Below, one piece after another: positions 3,886 to 56,676 of a DNA stretch of 64,000 nt (position 1 is the first letter of the stretch; the number at the start of each line of letters is the position of its first letter). The stretch is from Deltaproteobacteria bacterium (GTDB lineage Bacteria; Myxococcota_A; Polyangia; DRWM01; JAAZOP01). The notes beneath the pieces are model-generated. The model had not been told where the DNA came from and did no database searches. It saw only the letters and a list, made by a program, of their open reading frames with translations. The stretch is taken from the NCBI GenBank assembly GCA_016218765.1, contig JACRCZ010000118.1:1772-65771 (forward strand), in the 5' to 3' direction. The position numbers and the translations under genes were made by a program.

Positions 3886-3954
3886 GCGGTGACGCGGGTG
3901 GCGCGACCGAGCAGGCGGGTTCGAAGGGAGGGGGGAGGGGGAGGGGGAGGGGAG

Positions 3955-4067
3955 TTGGTCAATTGGGTCTCGTTATAGGTCATAGGTTTTCGGTCTTCGG
4001 GCGGGACGGGGGGGAGTTGGTCAATTGGGTCTCGTTATAGGTCATAGGTTTTCGGTCTTCGGGCGGG
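3955..4067. repeat. Tandem pair of family A repeats (period 62 nt)
   Basis: About 54 nt (GAGTTGGTCAATTGGGTCTCGTTATAGGTCATAGGTTTTCGGTCTTCGGGCGGG) is repeated exactly. The second copy contains the TAA stop (4035..4037) of the 1686-codon ORF. Confidence 0.9.
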
Positions 4068-27803: not shown

Positions 27804-28934
27804 CTAGCGGAAGTCCTGCACGGCCCAGATTTCCCCGTTCGGCATTTCGAAGAACCCGCAGGCCACTTCGCGGAACTCGGTCGATGACATGTTGAGGAAG
27901 TGGCCGTGTTCGCTGAACGGCTCGCCCGGCCCTTCGTCCCACATCTGTTGCAGGCAGAGGACGACGGTACTTTCGAGGGTCGGGTAGGCCGGGCAGGCGT
28001 TCTGGGCCCGTTCCCGGCAGGCGCCGAAGGAGCCGTGCGCGGTGCCGGTTTCGCTGTCGCTCCGCGCCTCGCCGTCGGTGCACGCCTCGGCGTCCGTCCA
28101 GCGTCCCAGCGGCGGCAGCCCCAGCGTTGCCCGGTAGCGGTTGATCCCCTCGACGCACCGTTGCCGGTACTCCTCCAGGTCCCCGGTCCCCGCCACGAGC
28201 GGGACCTGGGGTGTCCCTCCGCAGTCCGGGTCCTGCGGACATCTCGCGTTGCACGTTTCGTCCGCTCCGCAGTCCCCGTATTCCTCCAGGCACTCCGGAT
28301 CGCAGCCGCAGTCCGCCTCGCACGACCAGGCCAGATCGCACGTGCAGGGGCACTGCGTATCGCACGGGCATTCGTAGTCGCAGGCCCACGTCAGGTCGCA
28401 CGCGCACTCCTCGACCGGCGCCTGCGTTTCGCTACCGCAGTCCGGATCCCCCGGGCACCGCGCGTTGCACGCTCTGTCCTCCACGCAGTCCCCGTACCCG
28501 CCCACGCATTCCGGGTCGCACGCGCAGCCTTCTTCGCAGGACCATGCCTGGTCGCAGGTGCACGGGCACTCCGGGTCGCAGGCGCATTCGTAGTCGCAGG
28601 CTGCCGACGCGTCGCACGCGCACTCGCCCTCCCCGTCCGGCCCGCCGTCGCTTTCGGGATTCGCCGGTGCCGGAACCGCGGCGACGGTGGTCGTTTCTTC
28701 GCCTTGCCGTCCGCCGAGCTCCGGCGGCAGGACGTGCCCGCTGCGCTCGGGTTCGGCGCGGTAGGCCGAGCCCGGGTTCCCGGGTAGGCGGCTCACGTGC
28801 GACACGATGGTCGCTCCGCCCCACGGTCCGGCCCCGCTCCGCAGCTCCGGTTTCGCCCGCTCCAGGCAGCCCGCCGCCGCGAGCCCCAGTATTCCGACCC
28901 AGAACACGATCCGACCCAGTCCGCTGCTCATCAT
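27804..28934 (-). CDS. Lipoprotein: 2 x 16-Cys repeat plus CAP/SCP (PR-1-like) domain
   Basis: ATG at 28934/28931 after GGAGGA. Lipobox LAAAGC. Two 71-72-aa CxCD-rich repeats. C-terminal CAP-like motifs INRYRA..GHF.NM. Confidence 0.75.
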   Translation of the reverse strand: MMSSGLGRIVFWVGILGLAAAGCLERAKPELRSGAGPWGGATIVSHVSRLPGNPGSAYRAEPERSGHVLPPELGGRQGEETTTVAAVPAPANPESDGGPDGEGECACDASAACDYECACDPECPCTCDQAWSCEEGCACDPECVGGYGDCVEDRACNARCPGDPDCGSETQAPVEECACDLTWACDYECPCDTQCPCTCDLAWSCEADCGCDPECLEEYGDCGADETCNARCPQDPDCGGTPQVPLVAGTGDLEEYRQRCVEGINRYRATLGLPPLGRWTDAEACTDGEARSDSETGTAHGSFGACRERAQNACPAYPTLESTVVLCLQQMWDEGPGEPFSEHGHFLNMSSTEFREVACGFFEMPNGEIWAVQDFR

Positions 28935-29426: not shown

Positions 29427-31114
29427 CTCTTCCCTCTCCTCCCTCGCTTGGCATTGACTTCGGCACCACCACGTCCCTCGTCGCGGTGGGCCGGCCGGTC
29501 GCCGACGCGCGGGGCGTCGAGCCTTCCGTCCTTCCGGTGGACCACGACGAAGCCGGCGCGGCCCTCGACACGCTTCCGACTCTGCTCTACTTCCCGTCCG
29601 TGCGGAAGCTGGTGATCGGGGAGGCGGCCCGCGAGCAGCTCGGCCTGCGACCGGACCGCGTGGTCCGTCGGCTGAAGCAGCTCCTTGGCCGTTTTCCGCG
29701 CGTTGCGGTCGCGGGCCGCAGCTATGCCACGACCGACCTTGCGGCGGCGGTATTCCGGCGGCTCAAGCGCGCGGCGGAGACCCACGTCGGGTCCCGCGTC
29801 CGGGACGCCGTGGTCACGGTCCCTGCGTCGTTCGACGCCGGCCGGCGTCGGGCGCTCCTGGATGCGCTCGAGGCCGCCGGCTTCGCCGTTCGCGCGAACA
29901 CGCTTCTGGACGAGCCCGTCGCGGCGCTGGCCGCGTACCTTCATGGGCGGACGGCCGCGCCGCGCCGCGCCGTCTCGAGCCGGGGTGGACCCGCGTCCCT
30001 CTTGGATCCGGGCGCGATCGATTTTTCCGTCGAGCGCACGGTGCTGCTGCTCGACGTCGGGGGCGGCACGAGCGACGCGTGCGTCGCGCGGGTGCGGCCC
30101 GACGGCGGCGGGTTGGCCGTCGAGCTCCTGGCGCTTTCGCGTTTCACGCCCGTCGGCGGCGACGATTTCGACGCCCTGGTGGCCCGTGGTCTCATCGCGC
30201 GCTTCGCCGAGCGTTCCGGCCTTGACCTGGACGCGATGCCCAAGGGCGACCGTCTTCTGTTCCAGCACCGGATGATCCTCACGGCGGAGCGTGCGAAGCG
30301 CGACGTGTCAGCGGCGCCGGTGGACGGGGTCGAGCCCGTGGCGCGCATCCGGCAGATGTTCCTGCACGGCACGCACCATTTGCTGGAGACGATCGACCGC
30401 GCGCGCTACGCCGAGCTGGCCGCTCCATTGCTGGCCGATCCGCGCGCGGCTCGCGACGACGGGTGCTTGTCGGTTCTCGACGCCCCGTGGGACGCGCTGC
30501 GCAAGGCCGGCCTGGACCCTGCCGCTCTGGACGCCGTCCTCCTGGCCGGGGGCATGGCGCTTGTGCCGGCGGTGCGCGACGCCGTGGCTCGTCTTTTCGG
30601 TCGCGAGCCGTTGCTGGTTCCTTCGCCCTTGACGGCCATCGTTGCCGGGGCGGTGGTCCAGTCGTTTGCGCTTGCCGGTGGGCGACCCGGCCTGCGGCCC
30701 GCGGCGGCGATTGCGGCGGAGTCCGTCGGGGTGTGCACGGCCGGTGGTGGATTCCGGCGACTGATCGCGGCCGGTACGCCTCTTCCGGCCCGCGTGGTCG
30801 AGCGGGCGGCGTTCGCGCTGCCGCACGGTTGGGGTCGCTACGTGCGGATCCCGATCGCCGAAGGAGACGAGACCCGCGCCGACTGCCGCCGGACGCTCGC
30901 GACGCTCGCGTTGCGTTTCCCGCGGCGCGTTCCGGCGGACAGCCGCGTCACGCTGGAGGCTGTGTTGGACGAGAACAAGGTGCTGTCGGTGCGCGGCTAC
31001 CTGGAGGCCGATCCGTCGATCTCGGCCAGTGCGCGGCTGAACGTCGGGGGGGAGGGGGGAAGGGGGGAAGGGGGAAGGGGGAAACCACAGATGGACACAG
31101 ATGAACACAGATAG
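29423..31114 (+). CDS. Hsp70-family ATPase (atypical DnaK paralogue)
   Basis: GIDFGTTTS, VVTVPASFD and LLLDVGGGTSD motifs. The last 24 aa or so (..GGEGGRGEGGRGKPQMDTDEHR) and the TAG stop are encoded by repeat DNA. Confidence 0.85.
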   Translation: MTLPSPPSLGIDFGTTTSLVAVGRPVADARGVEPSVLPVDHDEAGAALDTLPTLLYFPSVRKLVIGEAAREQLGLRPDRVVRRLKQLLGRFPRVAVAGRSYATTDLAAAVFRRLKRAAETHVGSRVRDAVVTVPASFDAGRRRALLDALEAAGFAVRANTLLDEPVAALAAYLHGRTAAPRRAVSSRGGPASLLDPGAIDFSVERTVLLLDVGGGTSDACVARVRPDGGGLAVELLALSRFTPVGGDDFDALVARGLIARFAERSGLDLDAMPKGDRLLFQHRMILTAERAKRDVSAAPVDGVEPVARIRQMFLHGTHHLLETIDRARYAELAAPLLADPRAARDDGCLSVLDAPWDALRKAGLDPAALDAVLLAGGMALVPAVRDAVARLFGREPLLVPSPLTAIVAGAVVQSFALAGGRPGLRPAAAIAAESVGVCTAGGGFRRLIAAGTPLPARVVERAAFALPHGWGRYVRIPIAEGDETRADCRRTLATLALRFPRRVPADSRVTLEAVLDENKVLSVRGYLEADPSISASARLNVGGEGGRGEGGRGKPQMDTDEHR

Positions 31115-31290
31115 GGAGGGAGGGGGGGAGGGAAGGGGGGAACCACAGATGGACACAGATGGACACCGATAGGGAGGGAGGGGGGGAGGGAGGGGGGGAA
31201 CCACAGATGGACACAGATGGACACCGATAGGGGGGGAGGGGGGGAGGGAGGGGGGAACCACAGATGGACACAGATAGGGGGGGAGGGAAG
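31040..31290 (+). repeat. Family C repeat array: 4 units of [polypurine G/A tract + AACCACAGATGGACACAGATGRACACMGATAG], period about 58 nt
   Basis: Read directly. The core is about 40% GC in a roughly 70% GC genome. Other copies lie at 41476, 54589 and 56491. Confidence 0.9.
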
Positions 31291-31992
31291 TTCACGGGGC
31301 GGCGGGCGGCACCGTTGCACGGGTGGGCGGTCACCCCCCGCGAGGCGCTTGCCATCCAGCGGGGGCTGGCGCCGAAGATCGTCGTCGCTCCTCCTGTCGG
31401 TTCTCTCCGTACCGTCGCCGGCCTCGACGTATCGGTCGGTCGTTTCGAGAAGACGTGTCGGGCGGGGGCGGTCCTGCTGGAGATCGACACGCTTCGGGTG
31501 CTGGCCCGCGTTCGCGTGACGCGTCCGGTTCCGTTCCCGTACGTCCCCGGCTTGCTGTCCTTCCGGGAAATCCCCGTTTTGCTCGACGCGCTCGCGGGGC
31601 TTCCTTCGGTTCCCGACGTGCTCGTGGTGGACGGCCAGGGTTACGCCCACCCGCGGCGCTTCGGTCTCGCGTGTCATCTGGGGTTGTGGTGCGGCATCCC
31701 TTCGATCGGGGTGGCGAAGAGCATTCTGTGCGGCGTGCATGGTCCGCTCGGCCCCGCTCGCGGCTCCGTCGCGCCTCTCGTCCACGGAGGGGAGACGGTC
31801 GGCGTCGCCCTTCGGACCCGTGCGGGCGTGAAGCCCGTTTACGTGTCGGTCGGGCACCGGTTCGATCTGGACTCGGCGGTGTCGCTGGTCCTGCGGCTGG
31901 CCGTCCTTCGACGGGGCTCAGGACAGGCCCGTTTTCGGCTTGTGGAGCCGGTGCGGCAGGCGCATGCGCTGGTGAGTACCCGCGGCACGTGA
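31264..31992 (+). CDS. nfi: Endonuclease V
   Basis: GLDVS, PYVPGLLSFRE, VDGQGYAHPRRFGLACHLG, IGVAK and GHR motifs. The only upstream in-frame ATG (31264) lies inside the repeat array, so the start is uncertain. Confidence 0.85.
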   Translation: MDTDRGGGKFTGRRAAPLHGWAVTPREALAIQRGLAPKIVVAPPVGSLRTVAGLDVSVGRFEKTCRAGAVLLEIDTLRVLARVRVTRPVPFPYVPGLLSFREIPVLLDALAGLPSVPDVLVVDGQGYAHPRRFGLACHLGLWCGIPSIGVAKSILCGVHGPLGPARGSVAPLVHGGETVGVALRTRAGVKPVYVSVGHRFDLDSAVSLVLRLAVLRRGSGQARFRLVEPVRQAHALVSTRGT

Positions 31993-39892: not shown

Positions 39893-41500
39893 GTGCCCGC
39901 CGCCTTCCTCACGGCTGCTCTCCTGGTTCTTGCCGCTCCCGGCGTGCTGTCGTCCCGTCTCGCCGCCCTTTTCGCCTGGGTCGCCTTCTTCCCGCTTCTC
40001 GTCCACCTCCCGAAGGTCACTCTGGTTCGCGCCGCGTTTCTCGGCTGGCTCGCCGGGGTCGTCACCACGTTGGGTGCCTGTGCCTGGTTTCCGGGTCTCC
40101 TCGCGCGTTTTTCCGGCCTTCATCCTCTGGTCTGCGTGCTGGTCGTCTTCGCCATTGCCGCGTGGCAGGCTGCCGGGTGGGCCGCGTGGGCCGTGCTGGT
40201 CCGGGTCGCGTCCGGCGCGGCGGGGTCCTCCGACGGTTCTCACCCGGGGATTCGTCGTCTGCGCGCCGCCCTGACGTTCGTGCTACCCGCCGCCGCTTTC
40301 GTCGTGTTCGAGCGCTGGCTCCCGGTGATTTTCCCTTCCTCGGTCGGCATCACGCAGTACCGCTTCCCGGTGCTCGCGCAGTCGGCGGAGCTTGGCGGGC
40401 CGTACGTGCCGGCATTCCTGTGCCTGTTGTTCTCCACGGTCCTGGCGCGCGCGTTTGCCGCGGCGCGTGGGTCGCGTGGTCTGCCCGGCGGCGCGATTTC
40501 CGGCTTCTTCGCCCTCCTGGTCGTTTTGCTCGTCTTCGGCCTGGTCCGGCTTCGCGGGATCGACCGCGAGCGCGGCGCGGCGCCGCGATTCCGCGTTGCC
40601 GCGGTGCAGGCCGGGGTGGTCAAGACCGGCTGGAACACCCCGCCCGACGACCCCCAGCGTCTCGGCCGCTACCAGCGTCTCTCGGCCGAGGCGGAGCGCG
40701 ACGCCCGCGCCGTCGACCTGCTGGTCTGGCCGGAGAAGGCCTATCCGTTCCCGCTCCGCAGCGACGCCCGCCACGACTATCGCCCGGACGACAAGCATCG
40801 CATCCGGCGTGGTTTCCGGTCTCCGCTCCTGTTCGGCGCGACGGCCGTCGATCCCATCTCCCGTCGGCTGTCCAACTCCGGCTTCCTTCTCCTGCCCGAC
40901 GGCGGGTTGCGCGACGTCTACGACAAGGTCCGGCTCATCTTCTACAGCGAGCGGTTTCCGTCCTGGCTTTCCTGGCTTGCCTCGCCGCGCACCGGGTATC
41001 TCCCGGGCTCGAAGTTCGATCCTGCTCCGGCCGCCGCGCCTCTCGCCGTCTTCATCTGTTTCGAGGCCACGTTCCCCGACCACGTGCGCGCGCTCGTGGC
41101 TCGTGGTGGCCGACTCCTGGTCAATCTCTCGGACGACTCGTGGTTCGGGGAATCGGCCGAGCCCGAGCAGCACCTGGCCCACGCGGTTTTCCGGGCGATC
41201 GAGTCCCGGCGCGACCTGGTGCGCGCGACGGGTTCGGGCGTCAGCGCGCACGTCTCCGCGGCGGGCGAGATTCTCGGGCGCACGCGCCTCAATCGCTATG
41301 CCTCGGAGGCCGACGTGGTCCTCGTGGCGGATGCCCGGCTCCTCGATCGCCGGAGCTTCTACGCCGCGTTGGGAGACGCATTCTGTTGGTTGTGCGTCGC
41401 GTTCGTGGTGACAGGCCTCGTCGTCACCCGTTGCCGCCTGCCGATCCTGCGGTCGTCCCGGCCCGATCGGGAAAGAGAAACCACAGATGGACACAGATAA
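39893..41500 (+). CDS. lnt: Apolipoprotein N-acyltransferase
   Basis: Polytopic N-terminus. CN-hydrolase triad context VWPE / YDKVRL / FICFE. GTG 39893 is a provisional start. The last residues (..ETTDGHR) and the TAA stop lie in a family C repeat. Confidence 0.85.
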   Translation: MPAAFLTAALLVLAAPGVLSSRLAALFAWVAFFPLLVHLPKVTLVRAAFLGWLAGVVTTLGACAWFPGLLARFSGLHPLVCVLVVFAIAAWQAAGWAAWAVLVRVASGAAGSSDGSHPGIRRLRAALTFVLPAAAFVVFERWLPVIFPSSVGITQYRFPVLAQSAELGGPYVPAFLCLLFSTVLARAFAAARGSRGLPGGAISGFFALLVVLLVFGLVRLRGIDRERGAAPRFRVAAVQAGVVKTGWNTPPDDPQRLGRYQRLSAEAERDARAVDLLVWPEKAYPFPLRSDARHDYRPDDKHRIRRGFRSPLLFGATAVDPISRRLSNSGFLLLPDGGLRDVYDKVRLIFYSERFPSWLSWLASPRTGYLPGSKFDPAPAAAPLAVFICFEATFPDHVRALVARGGRLLVNLSDDSWFGESAEPEQHLAHAVFRAIESRRDLVRATGSGVSAHVSAAGEILGRTRLNRYASEADVVLVADARLLDRRSFYAALGDAFCWLCVAFVVTGLVVTRCRLPILRSSRPDRERETTDGHR

Positions 41501-41510
41501 GCACAGATGG
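41476..41510 (+). repeat. Family C repeat, single unit
   Basis: GAAACCACAGATGGACACAGATAAGCACAGATGG. Confidence 0.85.
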
Positions 41511-45869: not shown

Positions 45870-45883
45870 ACGGGAAGGGCCGC

Positions 45884-48800
45884 TCAGTACGTTTCGGGGG
45901 AGTGCGAGAAGTTGTGGCACCGCAGGCGACACGACCGGCCGGTGCTGCTCCACGTCGGGTCGGCCGCGTCTCCCGCCGGTCCGGACACGCTCGGCGCGAA
46001 GTTCACCAGACGCTGGTACGTCCGGTCCGAGGCCCACCCTGAGGTCCGGTTGCCGTGGAGGTTGTAGTGGCACTCCTTGCACACGGCGTTGCCCTGTCCC
46101 GAGCGTCCGTTGTTGCGGACGTCGATGTCGCCGGCGACGCCGCCGCGCGGGTTCCCGTCGATGTTCCCCATGTGGAACCCGTGGAAGCGGAACGCGGTGT
46201 CGGTGCGCGTGCCGGTGCCCGTGGTGGCGAACGGGGCCGAGGCGTGGCAGATGAAGCAGAACTCGAAGTTCGCGCTGGCGTAGGCCGCGGTGGAGGAGAG
46301 GTGTTCGACGCGGTAGTTGGCGCGGAGGATCTTCGAGCTGAAGTTCGCGTCGGTGGTCCCCGCGTCGGAGCCGTGCGGTCCGGTCGGGATCGCGCCGGTG
46401 TACCCGCTGAGCAGGGACACGGTGCGCGGCATGTCGCTGCTTGCGTGGCAGTCGCTGCACCACAGGACGCTCGACGTGGTCAGGTGGGGCAGGCCCGTGC
46501 CGCCCGCGAGGCTCGCGGTCATCGTCGCCGCCGTGTTGCGGCCTGCTGCTTCCACCGGGTGGAACGACTCGTTGGCCGGATTGAACAGCACCGCCAGGTC
46601 CGCCGCCCCCGCCGGCAAGGCGGTCCACGACGAATGGCACTTGAAGCAGACCTGATATTCGGCGACCGGGGCGCCGGTCGGGTCGGAGGCCGGGACGTAG
46701 GTGTACGCCGGCGCTGCGCCCGCGGCGCCGTTGGTCACCCGGATGCGGCCGACGCCGAGGAGGCGGTTCGAGCTGGTGGTTCCCGCGGTGTTCCCGGCGC
46801 GTGCATAGTGCGGGTTGTGGCAGTCGACGCACTCGGCATGCCTGTTGTCCGTCGGCGTCGCGCCGTAGGCCGAGGACGTGCCCGCCTCGAACAGGTCGTG
46901 GCGTCCGGTCCGGGAGACGGGGTGGTTCGAGGCCTTGGCGAGCTGGCCCTGGATGTTGGTCGCCGCCGGAGCACCGTCGTGGCAGGTCAGGCAGGGCGGC
47001 TCCTCGCTGTCGTACAGCACCGTCCCGGACGAGCTGCCGTGACGCTCGTGGCACGTCGAGCAGTCGTAGCCCGAGGCGTTATGGCTCGCGGGCAGGGTCC
47101 AGTACGAGGCGACGCTCGTCGGGGTCTGTCCCGTGAAGTACGGCCCTGCGCTGCCGTCGTGGCACGTGCGGCACAGCCCGCTCGACCCGGTGGCGGCGAA
47201 GGACCAGGTGTCGGTCGTGTCGGGGTCGACGATGACTCGCGTGCCCGTCAGGTGCGGGGCGCTCGCGTGGCACTCGGCGCAATTGGCCCGGATCACCGTG
47301 TCGGTCCCTCCCAGCCGGTGGCTTGTCCGCGGGATCAATCCGGGGCGTTCGTGGCACTCGCTGCAGGCGATCGTGGTGTCGGTCCAGGTCGCGGCGTTGG
47401 CGAGGTCGGGCGTGTCGCCCGGCACGGGGTTGTGGCAGCCGACGGTGCAGGTCGGGTTGCCTGCGCCGTAGCTTTCCGCGGGGGTCCCGCCGTTGTTCAT
47501 GGTGGTCCCCGCCGGATAGCTCACGCCGCTGGCGAACACGAGGTCCACGTTGGGTTGCAGGACGATGCCTCCTCCCTCGTTGTGCGTCGGTCCCGACCCG
47601 TCGTGGCCGTGGCACACGGCGCACCCGTAGCCGAGGGTCGTGACGTGCGCCGCGTGCGCGCCGCCCCCGCCCGCGTAGTCCTGGGTGGCGGGCGCCGGCG
47701 GATTGCCGTGGCAGGCGTCGCAGCCGCCGCTCACGTCCAGCACTCCGTCGATGTGCCTGGTCCGGTCGACGAACCGGGTTCCGTCGTACACGGCACCGTG
47801 GCACGTCCCGCAGTCGGTGCGCGAGGCGTGGGGCGCGGGCGGGGGCACTCCGTGGCAGGTCCCGCAGGCGTCCTGGGTCCCGTCCACGGTGGTCCATTGC
47901 GGCGACGTGAGCGTCCCCCCCGCGGCGAGCGTTGCGCCGTGGCAGTACGTGGATGAGCACCGCGCGCCGTCGAACGCCGGCGCGGCGCCGCCCGCGGTGG
48001 ACAGCCCGCCCCACGCCAGCTCCCCGGGCCGGGGATCGATGTGGCCCGGCGACAGCGCGTCGGCCGGGACGACGTGGCAGTCCGAGCAGCTCATGTCGGC
48101 GCGCCAGGTGGAGCCGGTGGCCACGTGCGTGGTGTGGGCGCCCACGCCCCGCACCGTGGTGGACGCCGCTCCCGCGACGTCCTCCGGCGGCGCGCCGGTG
48201 AGGTCCGCGACGCCGCCGTGGCAGAACGTGCAGTCCGCGCGAAAGCCCGTGTGGCAGCTCTCGCACGAGACGCCCACGGTTCCGCCGAGCAGGTCCGCGC
48301 CGTGGCAGCTCGTGCAGGCCGACGGGCCGGCGTCGAAGGCCGTGCCGTGCTGCACCGGGGCGTCCCACCCTGCCGGGTGGTACGCCGTCACCTCGACCAC
48401 GCCGTCGACGTGCAGCGCCGGCGCGACGAAGGCGCCGCCTGCCCCGATCACGGTCGCGTGGCACAGCTCGCAGCGGGAATCCGTCGGGTGCGGTCCGCCC
48501 GGCGGGAGGCCGTGGCAGGTGCCGCACGCGTCCTGGGTGCCGTCCACGGTGGTCCATTGGGGCGTGGTGATCGTCCCGCCGGGGTCGAGCGTCGTGCCGT
48601 GGCAGTAGGTGCCCGAGCAGCGCGTGCCGTCGTACGCCGGCGCGGCGCCGTCCGCGGTCGTGAGCGGACCCCAGGCCAGGTCCGCGGGCAGCGATCCGTC
48701 CATGTGCCCGGCGTCGCTGACCGAGGTCGGCACGCGGTGGCACTCGCTGCAGCGGATCTCTCCGTGCCAGGTCGAGGGCCCGAGGTGGCTGCGGTGCGCG

Positions 48801-50707
48801 CCCACGCCGGGCAGCGAGGTCGAGGTGCCCCCGGTCGTATCCTGCGGCGGCGCGGCCGACCCGCCGCCGCCGTGGCAGCTCTCGCACCCGCCGTAGCTGA
48901 CGTCGACGATTCCGTTCACGTGCCGCGACGCGTCGACGAACGTCCGACCGGCGCCGACCACCTCGCCGTGGCACGATTCGCACCGCGTGTCGGACGGATG
49001 GGTCCCGCCGGGCGGCAGGCCGTGGCAGGTCCCGCACGCCGCCTGCGTCCCATCCACCGTCGTCCACGCGGGGGTCGTGAGCGTTCCCCCCGGCAGCAGC
49101 GTCGCTCCGTGGCAGTAGTTTTCCGCACAGGTCGCCCCGTCGAACGCCGGCATGGCGCCGTCCGCGGCCGGCAACGGACCCCAGGTCAGCTCCGCCGGCA
49201 GAGCGGTGTCGATGTGCCCGACGTCGGAAACCGCCGCCGGCACCCGGTGGCACTGGCTGCAGGCGATTTCGGCGTGCCAGGCCGAGGTCCCCAGGTGGCT
49301 CCGGTGGGCGCCCACGCCGCGCAGGGCGGTCCCGGTCCCCCCTGTCGTATCCTCCGGCGGTGCGGCCGACCCGCCGCCGCCGTGGCAGCTTTCGCAGTCG
49401 CCGTAGGTGACGTCGACGATCCCGTTCACGTGCCGCGTCCGGTCCACGAACCTCAACCCCGCGCCGATCACCTCCCCGTGGCACCGCTCGCACCGCGTGT
49501 CGGACGGGTGCGTGCCGTCCGGCGGGAGGCCGTGACAGGTCCCGCACGCGGCCTGCGAGCCGTCCACCGTCGTCCACGCCGGCTCCGTCAGGCTGCCGCC
49601 GGGGAGCAGGGTCGGGCCGTGACAGTAGGTTGACGAGCACCTTGTCCCGTCGAACGCCGGTACGGCGCCGTCCGCGGTCGCGACGCCGCCCCACTGCAGC
49701 TCCGCGGGCAGGGGGGTGTCCACGTGCCCGGGCGACCCCAGCGTCGCCGGCACCTGGTGGCATTCCGTACAGGCGATGTCCGCACGCCAGTCGGATGTCC
49801 GGAGGTGGCTGCCGTGGGCGCCCACGCCCCGCAGCGTCGTGGACGATCCGCCGGCGGTGTCGATTGGCGGCGCGGGAGACCCGCCTCCGCCGTGGCACGA
49901 CTCGCAGTCGAGCGGGTCGGATTCGACGACGCCGTCGATGTGCAGCCCGGGGGCGACGAACGTCATGCCCGGCCCCATGACCGCGCTGTGGCACTGCTCG
50001 CAGGCGGCCGAGGGCGGGTGTCCGCCGCCGGCAGGGAGGGCGTGACACGTCCCGCACGCGGCCTGCGTCCCGTCCACGGTGGTCCAGGCGGGGGTCGTGT
50101 TCGTGCCGCCCGGCAACAACGTCGCGCCGTGGCAGTAGGCCCCGGAACAGCGCATGCCGTCGAACGACGGCGCCGCGCCGTCGGCCGTCGCGATGGCGCT
50201 CCACGTCAGCTCCGCCGGCACATCCGTGTCGATGTGCCCGGGAGAGCGCAGCTCGGCCGGCACGATGTGGCAGTCCTCGCACTGCACCTCGCGATGCCAG
50301 CCCGACGTACCGAGATGGCTGCGGTGGGCGCCCACGGCGCGATCCGTCGTCGCGCTCTCGCCGTCCAGGCTTGCCGGCGGCGCGGCGCTGGACGAGTCCC
50401 CGTGGCAGGTGCCGCAGGGCAACGCCCCGCCGTCGCCGCCGTCCCCGCCGTCCCGGCCGTCCCCGCCGTCCGACCCGTCGCCCGTCTCATCACCGTCGTC
50501 CGTGCCATCCGGGTCGAATCCCCCGTCGTCCTCCCCGTCGGCCGCGGCGTCTTCCGTCCCCGAATCGCCGCCGGCGTCCCCGCCGCCGTCGATGTCGACC
50601 GCCGCGTCGTCCTCGGGCTCGTGGCCTCCTCCCTCGCCGCATCCCGCCGCCCACAGCCCCAGGATCGCGCCCAGGGTCGTCACCATCGCCGGTCCACGAT
50701 GCCTCAT
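45884..50707 (-). CDS. Giant multihaem c-type cytochrome lipoprotein (CxxxxCH...CxxCH repeat family)
   Basis: ATG at 50707. Lipobox LWAAGC. D/G-rich linker. My manual count gives about 34 CxxCH, 5 CxxxxCH and 2 CxxxCH motifs. Five 170-aa modules are present. Confidence 0.85.
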   Translation of the reverse strand: MRHRGPAMVTTLGAILGLWAAGCGEGGGHEPEDDAAVDIDGGGDAGGDSGTEDAAADGEDDGGFDPDGTDDGDETGDGSDGGDGRDGGDGGDGGALPCGTCHGDSSSAAPPASLDGESATTDRAVGAHRSHLGTSGWHREVQCEDCHIVPAELRSPGHIDTDVPAELTWSAIATADGAAPSFDGMRCSGAYCHGATLLPGGTNTTPAWTTVDGTQAACGTCHALPAGGGHPPSAACEQCHSAVMGPGMTFVAPGLHIDGVVESDPLDCESCHGGGGSPAPPIDTAGGSSTTLRGVGAHGSHLRTSDWRADIACTECHQVPATLGSPGHVDTPLPAELQWGGVATADGAVPAFDGTRCSSTYCHGPTLLPGGSLTEPAWTTVDGSQAACGTCHGLPPDGTHPSDTRCERCHGEVIGAGLRFVDRTRHVNGIVDVTYGDCESCHGGGGSAAPPEDTTGGTGTALRGVGAHRSHLGTSAWHAEIACSQCHRVPAAVSDVGHIDTALPAELTWGPLPAADGAMPAFDGATCAENYCHGATLLPGGTLTTPAWTTVDGTQAACGTCHGLPPGGTHPSDTRCESCHGEVVGAGRTFVDASRHVNGIVDVSYGGCESCHGGGGSAAPPQDTTGGTSTSLPGVGAHRSHLGPSTWHGEIRCSECHRVPTSVSDAGHMDGSLPADLAWGPLTTADGAAPAYDGTRCSGTYCHGTTLDPGGTITTPQWTTVDGTQDACGTCHGLPPGGPHPTDSRCELCHATVIGAGGAFVAPALHVDGVVEVTAYHPAGWDAPVQHGTAFDAGPSACTSCHGADLLGGTVGVSCESCHTGFRADCTFCHGGVADLTGAPPEDVAGAASTTVRGVGAHTTHVATGSTWRADMSCSDCHVVPADALSPGHIDPRPGELAWGGLSTAGGAAPAFDGARCSSTYCHGATLAAGGTLTSPQWTTVDGTQDACGTCHGVPPPAPHASRTDCGTCHGAVYDGTRFVDRTRHIDGVLDVSGGCDACHGNPPAPATQDYAGGGGAHAAHVTTLGYGCAVCHGHDGSGPTHNEGGGIVLQPNVDLVFASGVSYPAGTTMNNGGTPAESYGAGNPTCTVGCHNPVPGDTPDLANAATWTDTTIACSECHERPGLIPRTSHRLGGTDTVIRANCAECHASAPHLTGTRVIVDPDTTDTWSFAATGSSGLCRTCHDGSAGPYFTGQTPTSVASYWTLPASHNASGYDCSTCHERHGSSSGTVLYDSEEPPCLTCHDGAPAATNIQGQLAKASNHPVSRTGRHDLFEAGTSSAYGATPTDNRHAECVDCHNPHYARAGNTAGTTSSNRLLGVGRIRVTNGAAGAAPAYTYVPASDPTGAPVAEYQVCFKCHSSWTALPAGAADLAVLFNPANESFHPVEAAGRNTAATMTASLAGGTGLPHLTTSSVLWCSDCHASSDMPRTVSLLSGYTGAIPTGPHGSDAGTTDANFSSKILRANYRVEHLSSTAAYASANFEFCFICHASAPFATTGTGTRTDTAFRFHGFHMGNIDGNPRGGVAGDIDVRNNGRSGQGNAVCKECHYNLHGNRTSGWASDRTYQRLVNFAPSVSGPAGDAADPTWSSTGRSCRLRCHNFSHSPETY

Positions 50708-50810
50708 GTCGAACCCACCCTCCCCCCCCCCGGGAGATCGGCACACGATTCCATATCGGATGTCTTGCCCGATGCGCGCTCTTTCTGAGCGAGATGCTTG
50801 CCCGACGGTT

Positions 50811-52157
50811 CTATCCGATGACGGGGCCGGGGCAGCCGTACACGACGTCGATGTCGCTCACCTCGCCGGCGAGGATGCGGTCGCACGCGGCGCCGTGGAA
50901 CTCCAGCCGCCCCGTGCTCTCGTCGTAGCTCCACCCGTCGGCGATGTCGGTCGGTATCCCCGCCGGGTCGTCGTTGAAGTAGACGTAGATCTCGGCCGGG
51001 TCGGGCACGTCGCCCTCCAGCCGGAAGTCGCACGTCACCTCCCGCCCCGCAATCTCCTCGAGCGCCGTGATCAGGTCCGCGGCCGAGTCGGCCTGGTAGT
51101 AGCGGTCCGTGCCGCCCGCCTCCGCGACCGCCGTGAGCTGCCCGGCATCGACGTCCCGGCTGAACCCGACCACGTACGTGCGCACGGGCGGGTCCTGGCC
51201 CAGCAGCGCGGCCGCGCCCGCCGGACCGTTCTCCCCGCCCGAGGTGCAATCCCCGCTTTCCTGGCCGTCCGTGACCAGCAGCACGGAGTTGTCGCGCAGG
51301 GGGTCCAGGAGCGACGGTTCCCCGACAAGCCTGAGCAGCGTCCGCCCCGTGCTCGTCTCCGGGTTGCCGCTGTCGCACAGGTAGTTCGGCGGAATGCCGC
51401 GCAGGCTCCCGCGCCCCAGCAGTGGAGCCAGGAACTCGTCGATCGCCACCGCGTTGTAGTCCGCGATCGGCACGACGATCTCCCCCGGCGAGCAGCCCCC
51501 GGGGCGGCACGCCGAGTACGTCGTCAACCCGAAGCGGATCTGGTCGTCGAACGCGAACGTGGCCTCCGCGATCGCCTCCTTCGCCACGTCCCACCGCGTG
51601 CGGCCGTCCACGTCCCCGTCCATCGAGCCGCTGCGGTCGAGCACGATCATCATGTTCGGCGGAAGTCGCGTCGTCGTGAACTCCGTCCCGCCGCACCCGC
51701 CCGGGACGCACCGGCTCGCCGCCTCGTCGCACACCAGCCCGCTCGCGCAATCTCCGTCGACCACGCAGGCCCCTTCGTCCAGGCACACGAGCGAGCCTCC
51801 GCCGCAGCGCCGCCCGGCTCCGCAGTCCGCGTCGACCAGGCACGTGCCCTCGCCGATGCAGTGCCCCGATCCGCTGCAGTACTGTCCCGCGGGGCAATCC
51901 CCCGGCCCCGTGCAAGTCCCGCCATCCGTCTCCGCGCCGTCCACCGCCTCGCTGGCGCCGTCCCGCACCTCTCCCCCGTCCCGAGGCCCCACCGCATCGT
52001 CCGCCCCCGCGCTGCACCCCGCGCCCCACACCCCAAACGCGGTCATCCACCCGACGAAGTCGTGCTTGGAAGGCCATGGGACATGGTGGAGCGTCATCCA
52101 CCTGACGACGCGGTATTCTGAAGGCCGTGGGACATGGCGGAGCGTTAGAAGTGACAT
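50811..52157 (-). CDS. vWA-domain lipoprotein with Cys-rich repeats
   Basis: MIDAS motif MMIVLDRSGSMDG. Cys-rich CxxxxxC repeats. Lipobox-like VWGAGC. The best RBS (GGGAGG) is before ATG 52157. Alternative starts are 52097 and 52046, within a 51-nt tandem duplication. Confidence 0.75.
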   Translation of the reverse strand: MSLLTLRHVPRPSEYRVVRWMTLHHVPWPSKHDFVGWMTAFGVWGAGCSAGADDAVGPRDGGEVRDGASEAVDGAETDGGTCTGPGDCPAGQYCSGSGHCIGEGTCLVDADCGAGRRCGGGSLVCLDEGACVVDGDCASGLVCDEAASRCVPGGCGGTEFTTTRLPPNMMIVLDRSGSMDGDVDGRTRWDVAKEAIAEATFAFDDQIRFGLTTYSACRPGGCSPGEIVVPIADYNAVAIDEFLAPLLGRGSLRGIPPNYLCDSGNPETSTGRTLLRLVGEPSLLDPLRDNSVLLVTDGQESGDCTSGGENGPAGAAALLGQDPPVRTYVVGFSRDVDAGQLTAVAEAGGTDRYYQADSAADLITALEEIAGREVTCDFRLEGDVPDPAEIYVYFNDDPAGIPTDIADGWSYDESTGRLEFHGAACDRILAGEVSDIDVVYGCPGPVIG

Positions 52158-54588: not shown

Positions 54589-54735
54589 AAACCACAGATG
54601 AACACAGATAAACACAGATGGGGAAGGGGGACCGGGTCCGGCTCAAAATGAAACCACAGATGGACACAGATAGACACAGATGGGGAAGGGGGACCGGGTC
54701 CGGCTCCGATGACCGAAAACCGAAAACCGAAAACT
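54589..54735 (+). repeat. Family C repeat, 2 units (period 61 nt), plus a (CCGAAAA)n tail
   Basis: GAAACCACAGATGRACACAGATARACACAGATGGGGAAGGGGGACCGGGTCCGGCTC x2, followed by GACCGAAAACCGAAAACCGAAAAC. Confidence 0.9.
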
Positions 54736-55856
54736 GCCCCGTCCCGGCGCGTCGGGCGTTTCTCCGTAGCTGCACCGCCGCCGCTTGCGCGCTGGCGGCC
54801 ACGCGCGCCCGTCGGGCGCTCGGGCAGGAAGCCGAGGTCGTGGTGCCCGAGCCGCACGAGGCGAAGCACTGGGAGAAGCTTGCGGACAACAAGGTCCGCT
54901 GCCTGCTCTGTCCGCGGCGCTGCGAGGTCGCGGATCGCGAGCGCGGGACGTGCGGGGTGCGCGAGAACCGCGGCGGCGAGTACCGGACGCTCGTCTGGGG
55001 CCGCGTGTGTTCGGAGAACATCGACCCGATCGAGAAGAAGCCGCTCTTCCATTACCGGCCCGGCACCGATGCCTACTCGTTGGCGGCGCCCGGCTGCAAC
55101 ATCGAGTGTCTGTTCTGCCAGAACTGGGAGATTTCGCAATTCCGTCCCGAGCAGATCGAGACCTGGGAGCGCTCGCCCGCCGACGTCGCGTCTCTCTGCG
55201 CCGAGCGTGCCATCCCGACCATTGCGCTCACCTACTCCGAGCCTGTCGTCTGGTGGGAGTACGGGCGGGACATCGCGGTGGCGGCGAAGGAGCGGGGTGT
55301 CGGCACGGTGGTGGTGTCCAACGGCTACATCGAGGAGCAGCCGTTGCACGAATGGTGCGACGTCGTCTCGGCGATCAAGATCGACTTCAAGGCGTTCACG
55401 CAGCGTTTCTACCGCGACACGTGCTCCGGGGATCTGGGCCCGGTGCTCGATACGCTCGGGCGGATCAAGGATGCCGGGGTGTGGCTCGAGCTGGTGATGC
55501 TGGTCGTGCCCACGCTCAACGACGACGAGGCCGAGGTCCGGGCGATGGCGAAATGGATCAACCAGCGTCTGGGTCCGGACGTCCCGATCCATTTCACGCG
55601 TTTCCACCCCATGTACAAGCTGACGAACCTCGAGCCCACGCCGGTCGATACTCTTGAGAAGTGCCGCGACATCGCGCTCGCCGAGGGCCTCCATTTCGTC
55701 TATCTCGGCAACGTCCCGCGCCATCCCGGGGAGAACACGTATTGTCCCCGCTCCGGCGAGATCCTCATCGAGCGCGCCGGGTACACCATCCTCGAGAACC
55801 GCATCGTCGGCGGCAAGTGCCCCTGCTGCGACCAGTCCGTGCCGGGCGTGTGGTGA
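54660..55856 (+). CDS. AmmeMemoRadiSam-system radical SAM enzyme with a twin-arginine-like leader
   Basis: CNIECLFCQNWEIS (Cx3Cx2C). PFL-activase-like fold pattern. C-terminal CPxxG..CPCC. Leader PARRAFLRSCTAAACALAATRA. The candidate ATGs (54618, 54648, 54660) all lie in repeat DNA. Confidence 0.85.
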   Translation: MDTDRHRWGRGTGSGSDDRKPKTENCPVPARRAFLRSCTAAACALAATRARRALGQEAEVVVPEPHEAKHWEKLADNKVRCLLCPRRCEVADRERGTCGVRENRGGEYRTLVWGRVCSENIDPIEKKPLFHYRPGTDAYSLAAPGCNIECLFCQNWEISQFRPEQIETWERSPADVASLCAERAIPTIALTYSEPVVWWEYGRDIAVAAKERGVGTVVVSNGYIEEQPLHEWCDVVSAIKIDFKAFTQRFYRDTCSGDLGPVLDTLGRIKDAGVWLELVMLVVPTLNDDEAEVRAMAKWINQRLGPDVPIHFTRFHPMYKLTNLEPTPVDTLEKCRDIALAEGLHFVYLGNVPRHPGENTYCPRSGEILIERAGYTILENRIVGGKCPCCDQSVPGVW

Positions 55857-56436: not shown

Positions 56437-56490
56437 TTTCGGCCCGGGCGGCCATGACGGGTGGCTTGTACGAAGCCGGGGCCGGACAGG

Positions 56491-56527
56491 AGGGGGAAGC
56501 CACAGATGAACACAGATGAACACAGAT
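56491..56527 (+). repeat. Family C repeat, single unit
   Basis: GGGGGAAGCCACAGATGAACACAGATGAACACAGAT. Confidence 0.85.
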
Positions 56528-56676
56528 TCCGGTCAGGGGAACGACCTGGACCTATGCAATGCACCCGGCCATGACGCGACGCGTGACGCGGCGATGGGGC
56601 CTGAGGCAGGGGGCGGGTGCTGGACGCGAGCCGGATCGGGGGTTAGCCTGTGCGATCGGGATGGAGGGAATCGGAC

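Follow-up and report, generated by a model that had tools for sequence, protein, structure and literature searches.

Miniature inverted-repeat transposable elements (MITEs) with an autonomous parent, for example the Correia elements of Neisseria, are small non-coding derivatives that share the ends of the longer element, insert near genes and alter expression signals. The Rickettsia palindromic elements (RPEs) are selfish palindromic elements of about 100-150 bp that are found in one genus and are translated inside host proteins. The short tandemly repeated repetitive (STRR) sequences and small dispersed repeats of cyanobacteria, said to have been described by Elhai in 2008, reportedly consist of heptamers in long runs that are intergenic, abundant in Nostocales and without a linked gene. 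The REPIN-RAYT system (doublets of repetitive extragenic palindromic, REP, sequences and the REP-associated tyrosine transposase) consists of a small gene between two inverted short repeats, with gene-less doublets and singlets in intergenic DNA that reach tens to hundreds of copies and have a 'master' variant in each genome (Bertels and Rainey 2011, PMC3116915). REPINs are also reported as mainly vertically inherited. In this work, a family of short decamer repeats was analysed in a 64,000-nt stretch of a Deltaproteobacteria bacterium (assembly GCA_016218765.1, contig JACRCZ010000118.1, positions 1,772 to 65,771), hereafter the window, and in the genome that holds it (G000).

The repeats of the window are probably orphan end-modules, similar to REPINs or MITEs, of a nuclease cassette that encodes a GxxExxY protein. 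The module would have been horizontally acquired and amplified, and the donation of stop and start codons to neighbouring genes would be a side effect. In this explanation, a module of about 55-60 nt is built from a purine run, AACC, three 10-bp CAC[A/C]GATGRA units and a G-rich tail, and in other phyla the same 28-30-mer forms both inverted ends of a tiny GxxExxY/PDDEXK_3 nuclease cassette. The lineage of G000 and its sister genome (G004) would have acquired the module horizontally and then amplified it. In G000 it is present as solo units and direct arrays without a cognate gene, intergenic and blind to gene direction. Insertion at gene junctions would passively truncate upstream open reading frames (ORFs) and provide new starts, and such a start would have been retained at the genes nfi and radical SAM.

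The repeat family in the genome of the window

The assembly of G000 has 5.9 Mb in 154 contigs and is about 80% complete. Genes were called using a model of codon usage and GC content at third codon positions that had been trained on G000, which gave 4387 genes with 90% of the sequence coding. The family consists of 215 units (at least two decamers each) at 166 loci, with 113 units on the - strand and 102 on the + strand. Three decamers per unit were found in 180 of the 215 copies, and the flanks are conserved. The flank logo shows the full module as GGRRRRRGGAAA-CC-(CACMGATGRA)x3-G-rich tail, with 85-100% purine at positions -13 to -2 of all copies. The core has a GC content of 43% against 72% for the genome, in agreement with the low-GC core described in the initial annotation.

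Two discrete subtypes were identified, which are CACAGATG (A-type) and CACCGATG (C-type). The units are homogenised in concert within the genome, where AAA units number 101 against 48 expected and CCC units 50 against 6 expected. The majority variant differs from genome to genome. In mixed arrays the step from A-type (CACAGATG) to C-type (CACCGATG) prevails by 19 to 6, and the spacer between units often recurs unchanged. Of the 166 loci, 130 are single units that lack an inverted partner. Contig ends have seven loci within 300 nt of them where 2.6 are expected; the arrays thus interrupt the assembly, and the copy number should be read as a minimum. Two contigs (C54:1-133 and C69:6-138) both begin inside identical three-unit arrays.

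Distribution across bacteria and association with GxxExxY genes

The exact triple-decamer pattern is present 149 times in G000 and 129 times in G004 (mostly the C variant), and only these two genomes among 61 of the same class exhibit it. The other three genomes of the same genus gave 0 copies, and the reversed-pattern control also gave 0 in the 61 genomes. The exact 30-mer was found in more than 116 stretches from more than 10 phyla, and its carriers include cyanobacteria, Acidobacteriota, Verrucomicrobiota, Planctomycetota, several proteobacterial classes, NC10, Nitrospinota and Chloroflexota. This distribution is patchy, with one sister genome in the class yet many phyla, which argues for a recent acquisition and burst. 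The cyanobacterium Scytonema NIES-4073 carries 68 exact triple decamers that are mostly solo.

Among the matches listed from other phyla, 43 of 59 neighbour pairs are convergent (R> <R), and the gaps of convergent pairs are 0-133 nt in 34 pairs and 349-378 nt in 7. The gaps of 349-378 nt hold an ORF of about 120 aa that matches TIGR04256 ('GxxExxY protein') at 3e-45. This ORF opens with the ATG of either the second or the third decamer (MNTD..), and its stop comes immediately ahead of the inverted copy. The ribosome-binding site, the ATG and the first codons (M-N/D-T-D) of the gene lie within the repeat. The tract that the initial annotation had likened to a Shine-Dalgarno sequence and the ATG after it are thus, in full-length elements of other phyla, the native ribosome-binding site and start of the GxxExxY gene. 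Five of the six GxxExxY ORFs among 30-mer loci elsewhere start inside the repeat, and the GxxExxY genes of four loci (L044, L048, L011 and L005) have an identical 27-30-mer at both ends.

The association was also measured over 80 GxxExxY loci that had been taken from many phyla with a single protein as query, and 77 of them were usable. In 49 of 77 loci the gene-start region and the 3' flank share an exact inverted stretch of 12 nt or more, against 0 of 74 in the distal-flank control (maximum 11 nt). The median end-to-end exact match is 14 nt within a locus and 8 nt between loci (p=3e-21), and the two ends therefore co-vary. The ends are variants on the decamer theme, such as CACAGATGAA, CGCAGATGAA, CGCCGATGAA, CGCGGATGAA, CGCAAATGAA and others. 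The GxxExxY proteins are 55-74% identical while the 30-mers of CACAGATG type are identical. In Scytonema NIES-4073, one remnant of a GxxExxY gene with an internal deletion is still enclosed by inverted triple decamers. Internal deletion of this kind is how autonomous elements classically give rise to miniature derivatives.

The AlphaFold2 model of the GxxExxY protein has a predicted local distance difference test score of 93.5. Its best fold match in the PDB is Cas4 SSO0001 (template modelling score 0.60, probability 1.0), and the predicted fold is closest to the Cas4/RecB/lambda-exonuclease type of PD-(D/E)XK nucleases. The residues D66, E76 and K78 are invariant in GxxExxY proteins and the D..ExK motif is intact. 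The PDB sequence search with the GxxExxY protein gave no real match. The full-text literature search for the repeat sequence gave no match, and GxxExxY/PDDEXK_3 is mentioned there in passing only. The function of this PD-(D/E)XK family is listed as unknown and 'multiple transfers' are noted (PMC3424549).

G000 has 3 GxxExxY genes and G004 has four, in assemblies that are 80-83% complete. These genes, and two of Scytonema NIES-4073, are bracketed by inverted arrays of other units (CGCAAAGG, GGAGAGGT and CGCCAAGA). The loci include C105:21466-21813 and C53:76249-76587 in G000, L142 and L143 in G004, and L224 and L225 in Scytonema. The CGCAAAGG type is common to G000 and a cyanobacterium. Units of the CGCAAAGG/GGAGAGGT/CGCCAAGA types are also dispersed in G000 (32 and 59 copies). 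We tentatively suggest that GxxExxY genes with co-varying inverted arrays of 7-10 bp (CACAGATGAA, CGCAGATGAA, CGCCGATGAA, CGCAAAGG, CGCCAAGA, GGAGAGGT and others) might be undescribed very small mobile elements of more than 10 phyla that are driven by a Cas4-like nuclease, with orphan ends that form REPIN-like populations and rebuild starts, stops and signal peptides.

Genes other than GxxExxY also appear to take the module as their start. An XisI-like ORF of 122 aa at L014:1808 (+) and a RhuM-like ORF at L015:87 (-) open at the repeat ATG (MNTDG.. and MDTDEHR..); both names were judged by sequence and the XisI-like ORF has no NCBIfam family. The inverted pairs at L029, L047, L054, L049 and L019 translate as M[ND]TD[EG]HR....SVFICVHLWL / LCSSVFICG and form the N-termini of long exported proteins, in which the reverse-strand copy is the hydrophobic core of the signal peptide.

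Orientation and placement relative to genes

The initial annotation had described the repeats as always on the + strand after + strand genes and had named a random genome-wide orientation as the result that would speak against this. Each copy at the four loci of the window does lie 3' of a + strand gene, but the rule fails genome-wide. The 141 classified intergenic loci consist of 50 in divergent gaps, 43 in tandem gaps in the same direction as the genes, 39 in tandem gaps in the opposite direction and 9 in convergent gaps; 17 more loci are inside predicted genes. The ratio of 43:39 in tandem gaps does not differ from random (p=0.74), and the spread over gap classes follows the expectation from intergenic length (chi-square p=0.28). 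The unit is nearer the co-oriented start in just 22 of the 50 divergent gaps, which is no bias, and the distance to the next start in tandem gaps is independent of orientation. The random orientation means that the repeat is not a dedicated, transcription-coupled cassette. The four loci in the window share their orientation by coincidence on a local scale, at odds of roughly 1 in 8 to 1 in 16.

The suggestion of an RNA-level element that is co-transcribed with its host operons did not hold either, given this orientation, a fold of the four-unit array that is not significant (z=-1.47), and an Rfam scan of the window that returned only a tRNA. An intrinsic terminator or structured RNA was rejected on the same results together with the lack of compensatory pairs in a composite form of about 100 nt, which was itself rejected as a structured RNA (consensus fold -10 kcal/mol, 0 compensatory pairs).

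Repeat units and host genes in the window

The window has 16 copies of the sequence CACAGATG where 0.96 would be expected, a number that none of 100 shuffles attained; 15 of the 16 copies are on the + strand. Tandem Repeats Finder reports an array at 31072-31275 with a period of 58 bp, 3.5 copies and 95% matches. The region 31040-31290 consists of four head-to-tail units, as had been annotated, each with a G-rich polypurine tract followed by AACC and CACAGATGRA decamers; the array sequence is a G-rich polypurine tract and then AACCACAGATGGACACAGATGRACAC[A/C]GATAG. The other units, at 41482-41508, 54593-54619, 54655-54681 and 56501-56527, are all on the + strand and lie in the three regions where further copies had been placed. 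The units and their host genes, whose identities were checked against NCBIfam, are as follows.

29486..31114, + strand: Hsp70-family gene, score below the DnaK cut-offs, last ~25 codons repeat-derived
31045..31082, + strand: G-rich polypurine tract before unit 1, translated as the ..GGEGGRGEGGRG.. tail of the Hsp70-like protein
31083..31112, + strand: core of unit 1, AAC and three decamers (CACAGATGGA CACAGATGAA CACAGAT); TAG at 31112-31114 is the Hsp70-like stop
31141..31170, + strand: core of unit 2 (CACAGATGGACACAGATGGACACCGAT)
31199..31228, + strand: core of unit 3, same sequence as unit 2
31256..31275, + strand: core of unit 4, truncated to two decamers, holds ATG 31264-31266
31264..31992, + strand: nfi (endonuclease V)
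39893-41500, + strand: lnt
41479..41508, + strand: single unit with the lnt stop (TAA 41498-41500) inside and a GGCTCCGSC module after it
54590..54619, + strand: unit 1 of a two-unit array with a 62-bp period, begins 2 nt past the stop of the upstream gene
54618..55856, + strand: AmmeMemoRadiSam radical SAM gene with a putatively repeat-built 5' end
54652..54681, + strand: unit 2 of the 62-bp-period array, ATG 54660 in frame with the radical SAM gene
54712..54734, + strand: (AAAACCG)x3 heptamer array that encodes RKPKTEN in the radical SAM N-region
56440..56560, + strand: copy of the composite subfamily (~100 nt), core at 56498-56527 between conserved arms (GGTGGCTTGCACGAACCCGGGTCCGGACAGG.. 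/ ..CCGGCCAGGGGGACGACCCGGACCTGTGCAACGCA)

The codons that had been assigned to the repeats were confirmed at all four genes. The Hsp70-like protein ends in ..GKPQMDTDEHR-TAG and the lnt product in ..RETTDGHR-TAA, and both stops are inside a core. The nfi ORF opens at ATG 31264 inside unit 4, 8 nt past the G-tract, and this is the sole canonical in-frame start in G000 ahead of FTGRRAAPLHGW, an N-terminal stretch that is conserved in all five genomes compared. The radical SAM ORF opens at ATG 54618 inside unit 1 of its array, and the motif RRAFLRSC, which resembles a twin-arginine (Tat) signal, is downstream of the repeat ATGs.

Some further repeats were observed in and near these loci. The composite subfamily has about 16 copies genome-wide. 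An (AAAACCG)n array near decamer units is also present at the orthologous site of G004, and double heptamers number 12 genome-wide. The sequence GGGAGGGAAGTTCACG (31279-31294) at the 5' end of nfi has 15 nt in common with the GGAGGGAAGTTCACGCAAAG x4 array that flanks the resident GxxExxY gene at C105:21466-21813, and two distinct micro-repeats may make up the start region of nfi. Two tandem repeats of the window, a perfect low-GC repeat of 62 bp x1.9 at 3949-4067 and a 216-bp x1.9 repeat at 28219-28625, have no relation to the decamer family.

Orthologous junctions in related genomes

The initial annotation had recommended a comparison of orthologous intergenic regions, and this revealed presence/absence polymorphism, with empty sites in three relatives (G001, G003 and G005) and filled sites in G004 and G000. 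G004 is the closest relative at ~80% nucleotide identity, and the empty/filled-site comparison with it covered the loci of the window. The junction between the Hsp70-like gene and nfi has 0 units in G001, G003 and G005, 1 in G004 and 4 in G000, and the arrays clearly expand in place. G001 and G003, which belong to the same genus, have a different Hsp70-like tail without the repeat. The upstream stop and the GTG start of nfi overlap (GTGA) in G001. In G004, the upstream gene terminates as ..EEEPQMNTDEHR* and nfi retains its own GTG after the single unit. This ancestral GTG start, present in G001 and G004, is lost in G000.

The radical SAM junction in G005 consists of a stop, 1 nt and an ATG with no repeat, and G001 and G003 are also without the repeat. 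Two units and the (AAAACCG)n array are common to G000 and G004 only, and in both genomes the repeat ATGs are the only canonical in-frame starts before the Tat-like RRxFLRxC motif. Both species have retained the radical SAM repeat arrangement since they diverged, and this argues for its use. Start donation at nfi and radical SAM looks real from these alignments, and we infer that the repeat ATGs are really used as starts in both genes. The ancestral junctions at Hsp70-like/nfi and radical SAM were overwritten, with replacement starts kept since the split of G000 and G004.

The unit of G004 near the same sigma-54 activator gene as the lnt-end unit is in the opposite orientation. Another decamer unit of G004 (C37:44718-44745) is located exactly at a synteny break against window positions 45871/52251, where G000 has two extra large minus-strand genes (45884-52097). 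This unit may mark a repeat-associated rearrangement.

Properties of the module that produce stops and starts

The decamer period of 10 equals 1 modulo 3, and three ATGs that are 10 nt apart therefore provide one ATG per reading frame. GATGA variants likewise put TGA in the frames, and the units often end in GATAG or GATAA. All frames of the reverse strand are free of stops, and its translation is SVFICVHLW / LCSSVSICG. Predicted genes that end inside a core are co-oriented with it in 23 cases and on the opposite strand in 0, and the distance to the stop is 20 nt for forward and 50 nt for reverse units (p=7e-5). In 57 of the 99 units with a co-oriented gene at most 150 nt downstream, the ORF is open back to an in-frame core ATG, which is largely expected by construction from the three-frame ATGs and the rarity of stops in 72% GC DNA. 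The donation of stops and starts is probably a by-product of insertion that was sometimes retained. The triple decamer with an ATG and a TGA per frame may be an adaptation for landing in operons without polar damage.

Alternative explanations

The portable stop/Shine-Dalgarno/start cassette of the initial annotation stands as a description of the window junctions, where stops and starts are supplied. As a general and dedicated element that is co-oriented with genes, or as an RNA element of host operons, it is highly improbable. All four loci of the window follow + strand genes, the forward strand offers an ATG per frame plus stops, the gene ends and open-back ORFs counted above fit such a role, and the repeat-built radical SAM start has been kept in G000 and G004. 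However, neither orientation nor placement departs from random across the genome, the RNA fold is not significant and Rfam has no match, three of the four same-genus genomes are without the repeat at orthologous genes that work there, and three ATGs in three frames with few stops in 72% GC DNA already lead one to expect an in-frame repeat ATG ahead of a gene. A host array of three helically phased 10-bp sites, bound by a regulator or nucleoid-associated protein and selected in promoters, is very unlikely as well. It would suit the exact 10-bp phasing, the three units fixed in 180 of 215 copies, the strongly conserved core and the 50 loci in divergent gaps that contain promoters. The share of divergent gaps is only that expected from intergenic length, though, and the array is absent from G001-G003 and the other same-class genomes searched while identical in distant phyla; its copy number varies at orthologous sites, and copies are also present in coding tails and signal peptides.

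The causality might also be reversed, with arrays and inverted pairs that are autonomous or serve as targets into which GxxExxY and other small cassettes home, and that spread by recombination, slippage and gene conversion. This is unlikely, although gene-less inverted pairs outnumber gene-containing pairs (34 against 7 among the matches listed), XisI-like and RhuM-like ORFs also start at the repeat ATG, G000 and G004 have bursts without a cognate gene, arrays grow locally from 1 to 4 units, and the units are homogenised in concert. Four observations oppose it, namely that the ribosome-binding site, ATG and first codons of GxxExxY are part of the repeat, that, over many decamer variants, the ends change together with each gene lineage, that an internally deleted gene remnant lies between intact ends, and that slippage by itself could not place one and the same 30-mer at more than 160 unlinked loci. 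An immobile, microsatellite-like repeat that arose in situ at unrelated loci is hardly credible. The short tandem units, the variable number of 58-62-bp units and the slippage-prone flanking G tracts resemble one, but identical 28-30-mers with conserved flanks recur at 166 loci that are not linked to one another and across more than 10 phyla, the reversed-pattern control gave 0, and 180 of 215 copies keep to exactly three units.

Several findings weigh against the explanation that the repeats are orphan end-modules of a GxxExxY cassette. No GxxExxY gene flanked by CACMGATG decamers was found in G000 or G004 (80-83% complete). The flank-to-flank test found no clean target-site duplication. Short-range neighbours in G000 are 49 direct against 6 convergent, which makes the local population unlike classical inverted-repeat MITEs or REPINs. 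No transposition activity is on record for the PD-(D/E)XK proteins of this family (PMC3424549). A cassette-size inverted pair bracketing a gene was also sought in G000 and none was found, and 'empty' copies of the ~100-nt composite that could expose a target-site duplication were sought with the same result. Direct flank matches show a weak excess, with 17 loci that have one of at least 9 nt where about 4.7 are expected; these matches are purine-rich and of no fixed length, and the Shine-Dalgarno-like GGAGGAGGA may be duplicated at the nfi site. We infer that the module is moved by the nuclease or by a resident paralogue that acts in trans. The missing cognate gene could be explained by trans-mobilisation by the resident paralogue, a lost master copy or an unassembled copy.

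If the link between nuclease and repeat is functional, it would represent a second REPIN-like system that is independent of RAYT, and it would give a role to PDDEXK_3/GxxExxY, a large family of many phyla. If true, it would also account for the odd 'MNTDEHR..' and '..SVFICVHLW..' peptide ends in gene predictions from metagenome-assembled genomes. G000 is a concrete case of a selfish 30-nt module that overwrote translationally coupled junctions, at Hsp70-like/nfi and at the gene pair that ends in the AmmeMemoRadiSam enzyme, and start and stop calls beside these repeats need caution in annotation.

Comparison with known systems

The repeat family resembles the REPIN-RAYT system in having a small nuclease-type gene bracketed by inverted repeats, scattered gene-less copies and a genome-specific majority variant. 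The 34 convergent pairs with gaps of at most 133 nt among the matches listed from other phyla are also REPIN-like. However, the linked protein is a PD-(D/E)XK protein of ~120 aa whereas RAYT is an IS200-like HUH tyrosine transposase, and G000 has no match to the RAYT/Y1 transposase (Y1_Tnp, PF01797). The repeat consists of three direct decamers without self-complementarity whereas REP is an imperfect palindrome, and the start codon of the gene lies within the repeat. The copies of G000 are solo or in direct arrays, so that inverted doublets are not the main form (49 direct against 6 convergent). The distribution across phyla is patchy, in contrast to the mainly vertical inheritance that is reported for REPINs.

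The likeness to MITEs and Correia elements is in the small derivatives that share the ends of a longer element and in the internal-deletion derivative of Scytonema. The differences are that no clean target-site duplication was seen, the parent has no recognised transposase, and most copies of G000 lack a second inverted end. The module is translated, as RPEs are, here as C-terminal tails, N-terminal extensions and, in reverse, hydrophobic cores of signal peptides. It differs from RPEs in being a 30-nt triple decamer that is present in many phyla and tied to a nuclease gene. The family shares with STRR sequences the very short tandem units dispersed in intergenic DNA, including the 68 copies of the module in Scytonema, but here the module is fixed at three units and its array terminates a gene cassette. 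The closest analogy is the REPIN-RAYT relation or a MITE with its parent, and membership in either fails on the defining features.

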